This document shows positions 19,121 through 19,397 of a DNA stretch of 64,000 nt, in pieces. Location: contig OZ024751.1 of assembly GCA_964016885.1 (NCBI GenBank), positions 51,026,001-51,090,000 on the forward strand. Reading direction: 5' to 3'. Both the position numbers and the translations under genes were made by a program. Every line of letters starts with the position of its first letter. Positions within the stretch are counted from its first letter, which is position 1. This DNA comes from Eledone cirrhosa. Its lineage: Eukaryota. The notes beneath the pieces were generated by a model. That model was not told the origin of the DNA and made no database searches. It saw only the letters and a list, made by a program, of their open reading frames with translations.

Positions 19121-19129
<9 letters not shown>

Positions 19130-19397
19130 TAAACAAATAATGAATAAAACAATGAAACAGTTCCTTATATTAAACAAAAAAAGTTCATTATTTAGTTCAT
19201 TTTTTTTGTTTAATATAAGGAACTGTTTCATTGTTTTATTCATTATTTGTTTAATATTTTATCTTGACTCTGTATACCGTTTATCTTTCACCGAAAGTGA
19301 TTTTTCATTACATCTCTTCTTTCCATGATATCCGGAATACATTGAGTTCTTCATACGGATTGGACACTACCGTAAACTCTTGGTAGATTTATCTACA
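19121..19397 (+). mobile_element. Fold-back insert in (TA)n, same family as 11551-12115
   Basis: Short arm 19121-19193, long arm 19201-19262, tail 19263-19397 nearly identical to the reverse complement of 11551-11685. Confidence 0.85.

Follow-up and report, generated by a model that had tools for sequence, protein, structure and literature searches.

Paired fixed ends in head-to-head stubs of a Penelope-like element of Eledone cirrhosa suggest two-ended integration from one staggered cut

Introduction

In Penelope-like elements (PLEs), inverted pLTRs with a tail, targeting of (TA)n, hammerhead ribozymes and the use of two start sites for reverse transcription (RT) are already known. In PAc, the Poseidon element of Anolis, both DNA strands are cut and extended and two RT start sites define the tail; the same report describes the ribozyme as dispensable and found no RNA ends at the cut site (PMC11167929). 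The hammerheads of PLEs are reported to cleave weakly as monomers and to act as dimers (PMC4209133), the Penelope element of D. virilis has an internal initiator-type promoter within its pLTR (PMC2377424), and an extra G in full-length L1 insertions has been read as the mark of a copied cap (PMC11702581). The origin of head-to-head repeats with a tail at one end and the role of the hammerhead are named as open questions in PMC3846280, PMC8557442 and PMC11167929.

Here we describe two insertions in a 64,000-nt stretch of the Eledone cirrhosa genome (the window) together with their relatives elsewhere in that genome. Like the inverted pLTRs described in PMC3846280 and PMC8557442, they combine a head-to-head, 5'-truncated copy with a tail at one end and a palindromic junction, and what is gained here over the known systems is mechanistic. 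The family is young, with thousands of near-identical copies and with ORFs that are intact, so that its insertions record the integration reaction at single-base resolution: two fixed starts, the pairing of a long with a short end, one template, a stagger of 11 to 17 nt, and a 5' end that looks capped and not ribozyme-cut. For the strict long-short pairing, the 135-nt tail and a cap-type G at PLE 5' ends, no report was found in a literature search that covered subscription journals thinly.

Results

Two independent insertions in the window

Throughout, +1 denotes the first base 3' of the predicted hammerhead GUU cut. The copy at 19.1 kb is an inverted stub set in (TA)n and consists of a short arm, a 6-nt insert and a long arm. 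Its left (AT)n target flank (19093 to 19123) has its last 3 nt in common with the end of the short arm (19121 to 19194, minus strand), which runs from -1 at 19194 to +73 at 19121 and terminates ...AATATTTTAT before (AT)n; +73 is the inner of the two fixed ends and, we infer, RT start site 1. The insert, GTTCAT (19195 to 19200, plus strand), is the reverse complement of +6 to +11, that is, a re-copy of +11 to +6. The long arm (19201 to 19397, plus strand) covers +12 to +208 and ends ...ATCTACA before the right (TA)n flank (19397 to 19430); +208 is the outer fixed end and would be RT start site 2. The part of this arm from +74 to +208 is a tail of 135 nt, and the whole arm is identical (197/197 nt) to a pLTR that reads through into an ORF (L038). 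The predicted cut point lies on the minus strand between 19193, which is +1, and 19194, which is H17, and the short arm starts there; the catalytic hammerhead core is missing from this copy. The earlier note had placed the end of the inverted arm within 1 nt of the predicted GUU cut, followed by a re-copied GTTCAT, and this description holds, with the arm ending at -1.

The copy at 11.9 kb has its long arm, which contains a complete hammerhead motif (core 11892, cut 11759/11758), on the minus strand (11551 to 11901, about -144 to +208), and its short arm on the plus strand (11902 to 12115), from -142, which is the family's dominant 5' end and likely a transcription start, to +73. On the plus strand a type I hammerhead motif spans 11902 to 12049, with the 5' strand of stem I at 11902 to 11908, the core CTGAAGA at 11909 to 11915 followed by a long stem II, GAAAC at 12031 to 12035, a 2-bp stem III with a palindromic loop, and the 3' strand of stem I at 12043 to 12049; the predicted cut is 12042/12043. 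Both copies thus have the same outer ends, 135 nt apart, and differ in their turns, which lie at -142/-144 in the 11.9-kb copy. They are 97.6% identical over the shared 208 nt and their flanks have only off-register repeat matches in common, which makes them independent insertions. A 111-nt direct repeat (12260 to 12370 and 12842 to 12952, 96% identical, 582 nt apart) lies beside the flank of the 11.9-kb copy.

A young element of the Hydra-clade type

The window copies are non-coding stubs of a young, Hydra-clade-like Penelope element, no part of whose ORF lies inside the 64-kb window. Family counts were obtained by exact pattern searches of the animal's own 3.0-Gb genome, where a 27-nt motif close to the long end is matched exactly at 4,769 places and its reversed control at none. 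Intact ORFs follow read-through pLTRs and encode 813 amino acids in L101, L102 and L351 and 810 amino acids in L347. The 813-aa ORF contains the RT motifs FDIDNYY, MGSSD and YRDD. Its structure model, built from 78 of 119 available sequences, has a pLDDT of 85.7, and the top seven PDB fold matches are telomerase RTs (best E value 6e-9); a profile search with the ORF matched a retron RT at an E value of 0.0015. The single ORF had no match in Pfam or in PDB sequence searches, and three homologues had none in Pfam. At the C terminus a GIY-YIG nuclease is recognizable as IVY...YIG at residues 692 to 709, with Y694 and R718 conserved and without a direct Pfam match, and 26 to 50% of the members of the ORF's Atlas neighbours carry GIY-YIG. 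Between RT and nuclease lies an Asn/Thr/Lys-rich, low-confidence insert (residues 482 to 572 in L101:4484-6922), which recalls the Asn-rich inserts described for rotifer Penelope elements (PMC3846280).

Marks of the Hydra clade in the ORF are DKT at 115, CNCRNKTNC (CxCX5C) at 673, CRLC at 771 and CNH at 799, and the ORF has neither CCHH between GIY and YIG nor CX2-5CxxC. Its N-terminal motif is RWR at 37, where the Hydra clade has RWK; a related ORF in L027 has RWK. Tandem read-through copies lie 6.4 to 6.9 kb apart, and together with inverted partners and the 135-nt tail they form the pLTR arrangement of an EN+ PLE. This unit length stands against a Hydra-clade norm of less than 3 kb, and 4,099 nt separate the stop codon from the next core start; the 4.1-kb region 3' of the ORF in L351 is rich in TA and TG repeats. 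The target is likewise of (TA)n type. TA-rich repeats adjoin the long ends of nearly all of 92 loci without read-through, and one lies in (CA)n. The placement in the Hydra clade is one by motifs, the 118 homologues being essentially unnamed. We also observed head-to-tail arrays of three or four full units, 6.4 to 6.9 kb apart, at 125.83 to 125.85 and 126.83 to 126.87 Mb of contig C1, the latter capped by one short end.

The copies are either head-to-head stubs or parts of ORF-bearing units. An origin as non-LTR retrozymes was considered and rejected: there are no head-to-tail monomers running from cut to cut, the ends lie off the cut site, and an intact autonomous element has this sequence as its pLTR.

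Two fixed ends, one of each kind per insertion

The long ends were sampled at the first 100 of the 4,769 places listed, all on contig C1; 92 of these stop within about 3 nt of +208 and the other 8 read through into the ORF. For the short end, exact matches across the genome, which cover one sequence variant, number 2,217 stopping at +73 against 2,253 reading through, and reversed control patterns gave 0. An adjacent inverted arm is present in 40 of the 100 long-anchored loci. It ends between +68 and +75 in 38 of the 40, exactly at +73 in 32, and never at +208. Conversely, 26 of 70 short-anchored loci (the first 30 of which overlap the long-anchored sample) have an adjacent partner, and all 26 partners end at +208. 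Among 60 loci anchored at the turn, 43 of 47 pairs are long-short and the remaining 4 involve nested inner arms. No adjacent long-long or short-short pair occurs across the three anchored samples. When ends were paired by coordinates along the first 163 Mb, 54 of 59 divergent clusters combined a short end with a through copy, 30 of them being kilobase-sized. The five exceptional clusters, through-through or short-short by coordinates, comprise a read-through copy in L350 and L352, a separate neighbouring insertion in L144 and L356, and one partly fetched 30-kb chain, and none of the five was shown to be a true like-like insertion.

In a subfamily that lacks 9 nt, the ends fall at +64 and +199 and the tail still measures 135 nt. 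Both fixed ends match (TA)n by 3 nt, and since 23 such triplets occur within +1 to +260, this match does not set the start sites. A sister family (L180, L181, L192, L226 and L272, on C1), with a GC-rich stem II and GUA as its triplet, shares the start base, and its short and long ends are similar; inside its tail about 28 nt are conserved, which may serve as a binding element for a protein.

Target duplications and the relation between the arms

A microsatellite interruption near one end made 37 of 87 two-ended insertions informative about the target. The interruption is duplicated in 11 of the 37 (two of which may be one duplicated locus), as against 53 of 1,332 mismatched controls, and the duplications measure 11 to 17 nt, most often 15, when both 3-nt overlaps are counted. 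In the other 26 of the 37 an exact target duplication is absent.

The two arms of one insertion are near-identical. Over 58 pairs they differ at 0.88 positions within insertions and at 7.9 between insertions, and identical arms make up 53% (31/58) within and 0.7% between. Yet of 40 pairs (those of 38 loci and of the two window copies), 15 have a short arm that exceeds the long arm on the 5' side by over 10 nt, some of these pairs having no overlap at all. In these 15 neither arm can have been copied from the other, since the short arm holds sequence that the long arm lacks, and the tail is always on the long arm. Near-identical arms that are often mutually uncopyable argue that the two 3' ends of a staggered cut each started an RT reaction, the templates being either one RNA or two RNAs of one source locus. 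That truncated long arms are more frequent (15 versus 4) was considered as a sign of RT collision and rejected, as RT can stop anywhere in the additional 135 nt of the long arm.

From the two window copies, the earlier note had proposed two defined priming sites about 135 nt apart and a programmed two-ended integration in place of random inversion. Both proposals are supported in the family at large. The two copies share the last base of the short arm and the ...ATCTACA end of the long arm, which recur genome-wide, far above chance, in the counts given above; +73 and +208 are used one per insertion end (38/40, 26/26 and 43/47 pairs); and the fixed ends, the strict pairing and the 11- to 17-nt duplications point the same way. 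The histograms of ends and turns are non-uniform, with ends at +73 and +208 and turns mostly at -142.

Where the arms start

The 5' ends were surveyed in 196 arms from 140 loci that had been chosen without regard to these ends. Sixty-eight arms run beyond -200. The other 128 starts include 75 between -148 and -131, of which 35 fall exactly at -142, and 3 between -3 and +3, with a mild enrichment across -24 to +16 (12/128). Genome-wide, the base before -142 (position -143) is non-native in 1,730 of 5,887 matches, about 29%, a figure to which sister families and later SINE insertions contribute (8 of the roughly 90 loci viewed). At the control site -60 it is non-native in 14 of 7,366 matches, and 8 arms in 6 loci, about 0.11%, are junctions there. 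The same -142 turn and long end appear in contigs from an independent run of another organism (X6).

The base before +1 is non-T in 591 of 8,788 matches and native in the other 8,197 exact matches, whose arms are intact through the cut site. Thirty of the 591 were viewed, and they comprise 26 intact members of a GUA subfamily, 1 GUC variant and 3 junctions; the reading of the 591 as a cut-site hot spot was rejected on the ground that 27 of these 30 are intact variants. Junctions at +1 are estimated at about 0.6% of arms, or 0.4% when joints that use stem I homology are excluded (four further entries were checked for this estimate). By these figures +1 is a minor hot spot, some 4 to 6 times one control site, an excess that rests on small samples (3/30 loci) and has a P of 0.09 in the unselected sample. 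The 19.1-kb copy belongs to a small class with starts at +1 that do not involve stem I homology (the others are L078/L202, L340, L342 and L345), and throughout this class the start of the partner arm, too, is at +1 or beyond it on the 3' side.

At the turns of L004, L018 and L257 the first 7 to 13 nt of the template are repeated two or three times, as expected at a hard template end, and L342 repeats its first 8 nt. Such tandem re-copies recall telomerase-like repeat synthesis or the inserts made by end-joining polymerases. Template jumps from a SINE to the PLE at -142 (L267, L270, L272 and L277) were considered and rejected, these being later SINE insertions with target duplication. In all, a common SINE with many copies in the window has landed four times in one and the same CATTAT site, which lies at the PLE's 5' edge, with a short target duplication.

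A conserved hammerhead motif that is probably mostly off

The motif conforms to type I, with a CUGANGA and GAAA core, stems I to III, a palindromic short stem III and an extra base after position 9. Over 10 copies from three groups, 97.6% of cells are paired, against 38 to 56% in slid controls. Stem II has 4 pairs with two-sided change and 0 of 500 shuffles reach its score, a shuffle test that related sequences inflate. By the conservation of its predicted pairing the hammerhead motif is real. Rfam at its gathering thresholds returned no match in the window, and its E-value mode on 11500 to 12200 returned hairpin-like microRNA look-alikes and no hammerhead.

The motif departs from the norm in its triplet and in one unpaired base. 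GUU is a weak hammerhead triplet. It is the triplet in 114 of 116 copies, GUA being present in another subfamily and in sister families, and an unpaired A (U in L181) stands before G12, where a G10.1-C11.1 pair is the norm. In folding predictions for six copies, +1 to +6 pair downstream and not in stem I, the probability of which is at most 0.21 and usually 0, and +1 to +10 form one strand of a predicted hairpin beside a U7 tract. Given that most short insertions turn at -142 with an excess of G, the hammerhead would be off most of the time and the usual template would be an uncut 5' leader.

Nature of the -142 end

The position -142 is the A of TCATT, at the upstream edge of hammerhead stem I, in a context close to the initiator-like TCACT of a rotifer pLTR (PMC3846280). 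The native base before it is C. It is replaced by G in 428 of 1,730 junctions, about a quarter. Where bases are inserted at the junction of hairpin arms, the last one is G in 13 of 29 cases, and 16 of the remaining 222 inserted bases are G (P = 9e-7). Of the starts in the unselected sample, 10 of 35 at -142 follow a G, as do 9 of 89 elsewhere (P = 0.024), and the G is present on both arms in L004, L018 and L218. Some junction Gs can derive from the opposite arm, as in 6 direct hairpin joints. In the GUA subfamily, too, turns lie at -142, in one case with a G on each arm. The initiator-like context, the excess of G and the precedent of a cap-derived G in L1 together make it probable, as far as sequence can tell, that -142 is a capped Pol II transcription start inside the pLTR. 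With 68 of 196 arms running beyond -200 and read-through copies beginning upstream of -142, templates longer than this are common, and the promoter for them is not explained by a start at -142.

Two further origins of this end were rejected. A second hammerhead cut at -143/-142, suggested by a NUC triplet, would have no core 3' of the complementary strand and a stem III unable to pair, and a splice acceptor at -142 would require AG, where the native upstream bases are TC.

Other elements of the window

Four further fold-back stubs of other families lie beside (TA)n, at 8615 to 8875, 11330 to 11530, 22525 to 22710 and 24019 to 24375, and at least two of them are built of a short and a long arm with a tail. 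Judged by eye, the stub at 8.6 kb has a minimal hammerhead-like core, a U3-A8 variant, and its turn lies at the 5' edge of stem I and not at the cut. A 341-aa frame at 39444 to 40466 (plus strand), with matches to RT (E value 7e-9) and GIY-YIG (E value 4e-5), is the remnant of a different Penelope-like element. At 54958 to 58059 (minus strand) lies a 1,034-aa LINE ORF with matches to AP-endonuclease, RT and a PHD-like finger, which is apparently abundant in the fetched loci. Repeat arrays at 30162 to 37451, 4502 to 7302 and 27293 to 29909 comprise an 8-nt unit repeated over 7.3 kb and long, degenerate arrays of trinucleotides.

Discussion

The data presented here are most readily accounted for by an integration in which both 3' ends of one staggered cut prime RT on the same RNA and the two cDNAs are joined head to head, a model that we consider likely as a whole. 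RT would start at +73 on one DNA end and at +208 on the other, each with a 3-nt match to (TA)n. The cut would be a staggered one made by the GIY-YIG nuclease, as suggested by the 11- to 17-nt duplications of microsatellite interruptions, and the two RT reactions would use one RNA, or two RNAs of one source locus. The position -142 would be a capped Pol II start in the pLTR, and the uncut leader that begins there would be the usual template. The 19.1-kb copy may have been templated by a rare ribozyme-cut RNA, RT stuttering at the hard end and re-copying the 6-mer.

What generates the template's 5' end can be read in several ways. The earlier note had placed the turn at the ribozyme cut and held that the template had a ribozyme-made 5' end. 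As a rule for the family, hammerhead cleavage is refuted and has very little probability left: starts near +1 number 3 of 128 and those near -142 number 75 of 128, the viewed non-T matches before +1 are mostly intact GUA copies (26/30, with 3 junctions), the subfamily with the canonical GUA turns predominantly at -142 as well, and folding predicts that downstream pairing prevails over stem I in most constructs. What speaks for cleavage is the 19.1-kb copy itself, which starts at -1/+1, the minor class exactly at +1 whose partners start at or after +1, the repeat of the first 8 nt in L342 as at a hard template end, and a motif conserved with covariation in stem II; for the 19.1-kb locus the note's reading stays plausible. 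A cleavage/polyadenylation product at the AATAAA 8 nt upstream of -142, protected and then used as template, is the main rival to a capped start. That signal is present in 28 native contexts from two subfamilies with a variable spacer, the site is CA and a TG-rich stretch follows. The usual distance from poly(A) signal to cleavage is 10 to 30 nt, so that 8 nt is short; two GUA-subfamily copies have AATACA instead, an uncapped end does not predict an excess of G, and the Penelope pLTR has an internal initiator-type promoter (PMC2377424). We hold polyadenylation to be unlikely and keep to the capped start. For the 19.1-kb copy alone, it is quite possible, if short of an even chance, that RT stopped prematurely in the ordinary way, or jumped at a structure beside the cut site, with no cleavage involved. 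Starts are mildly enriched over -24 to +16, +1 to +10 form a strand of the predicted hairpin next to the U7 tract, the native base at -1 is still present in the arm, and the excess at +1 in the unselected sample is not significant (P = 0.09). GUU is, as stated, a weak triplet, and PLE hammerheads are described as poor cleavers when monomeric (PMC4209133). Against a mere stop, exact breaks at +1 affect about 0.6% of arms and those at the control site about 0.11%, and both arms of the 19.1-kb copy begin at or after -1, as a template starting there predicts. A cut template also fits the +1 class, in which partner arms start no further 5' than +1, and L342, whose stutter resembles the 6-nt re-copy. 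We lean slightly towards a ribozyme-cut RNA as the template of this one copy.

The inversion itself could stem from cDNA that snaps back and primes itself, or from an antisense template, an origin put forward for the Penelope elements of rotifers (PMC3846280) and, for snap-back, observed with R2 (PMC11371274). The near-identity of arms within an insertion (31/58 identical), the frequent palindromic turns and the few joints that use stem I homology (L093/L203, L223 and L341) would suit such an origin. It would not, however, give 15 of 40 short arms sequence that is absent from the long arm, keep the tail always on the long arm, stop the end at +73 in 32 of 40 cases or place a G on both arms in L004, L018 and L218, and we regard it as quite improbable. 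Perfect palindromes can trouble assemblers, and one might suspect the hairpins of being assembly artefacts, or the two window copies of being one segmental duplication. Unrelated flanks, differing turns and thousands of dispersed copies with the same ends speak against both, and the independent run of another organism (X6) with the -142 turn and the long end speaks against an artefact; these readings are refuted, and their probability is practically nil. Two primed reactions at one cut stay the preferred account of the inversion.

It is conceivable, at about even chances, that obligate twin priming is the normal route of integration: an RT dimer would take one capped sense RNA and extend one DNA end from +208 and the other from +73, head-to-head joining would yield the inverted pLTR with its tail, the start at the edge of stem I and the downstream anti-stem would keep the ribozyme off, and rare cut RNAs such as that of the 19.1-kb copy would use the same route. 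If this is true, the inverted-repeat architecture of PLEs is explained without antisense self-priming.

Set beside described elements, the family resembles the Hydra clade of PMC8557442 in its DKT motif, its CxCX5C, CxxC and CxH, the lack of CCHH and the hammerhead in the pLTR, and also in its (TA)n target and its tandem and inverted insertions. Members of that clade are described as shorter than 3 kb and as having RWK, whereas the units here measure 6.4 to 6.9 kb, have a microsatellite-rich 3' region of 4.1 kb and carry RWR. A target duplication, there of about 8 to 10 bp, and an initiator-like pLTR motif are shared with the PLEs of PMC3846280 and PMC8557442. The tail known from PMC3846280 is 30 to 40 nt long and optional, and the one here is 135 nt long and close to obligate; the self-priming on antisense RNA proposed in the same report is a mechanism that the arm data argue against. 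With the non-LTR retrozymes (bioRxiv 10.64898/2026.07.22.740005) the stubs have in common that they are short, non-coding, PLE-derived and equipped with a type I hammerhead.

Closest in mechanism are PAc and LINE-1. PAc likewise has two internal start sites, an AT-rich target, a predicted dimer and a ribozyme that is not needed, and its cutting and extension of both strands in vitro agree with the reactions proposed here (PMC11167929). Its sites are described as lying in the ORF, at a stem-loop that is AC-rich and lacks homology to the target, and strands were not seen to differ (PMC11167929); here they lie in a non-coding leader, match (TA)n by 3 nt and differ from one DNA end to the other. 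In LINE-1 twin priming, too, both DNA ends prime RT, the cDNAs are end-joined and full-length 5' ends gain a G, and the second primer is reported to land at variable internal sites, with arms that barely overlap (PMC11702581). In the family described here, in contrast, the second site is fixed, an overlap of about 215 nt between the arms is usual, and twin priming is the usual outcome.
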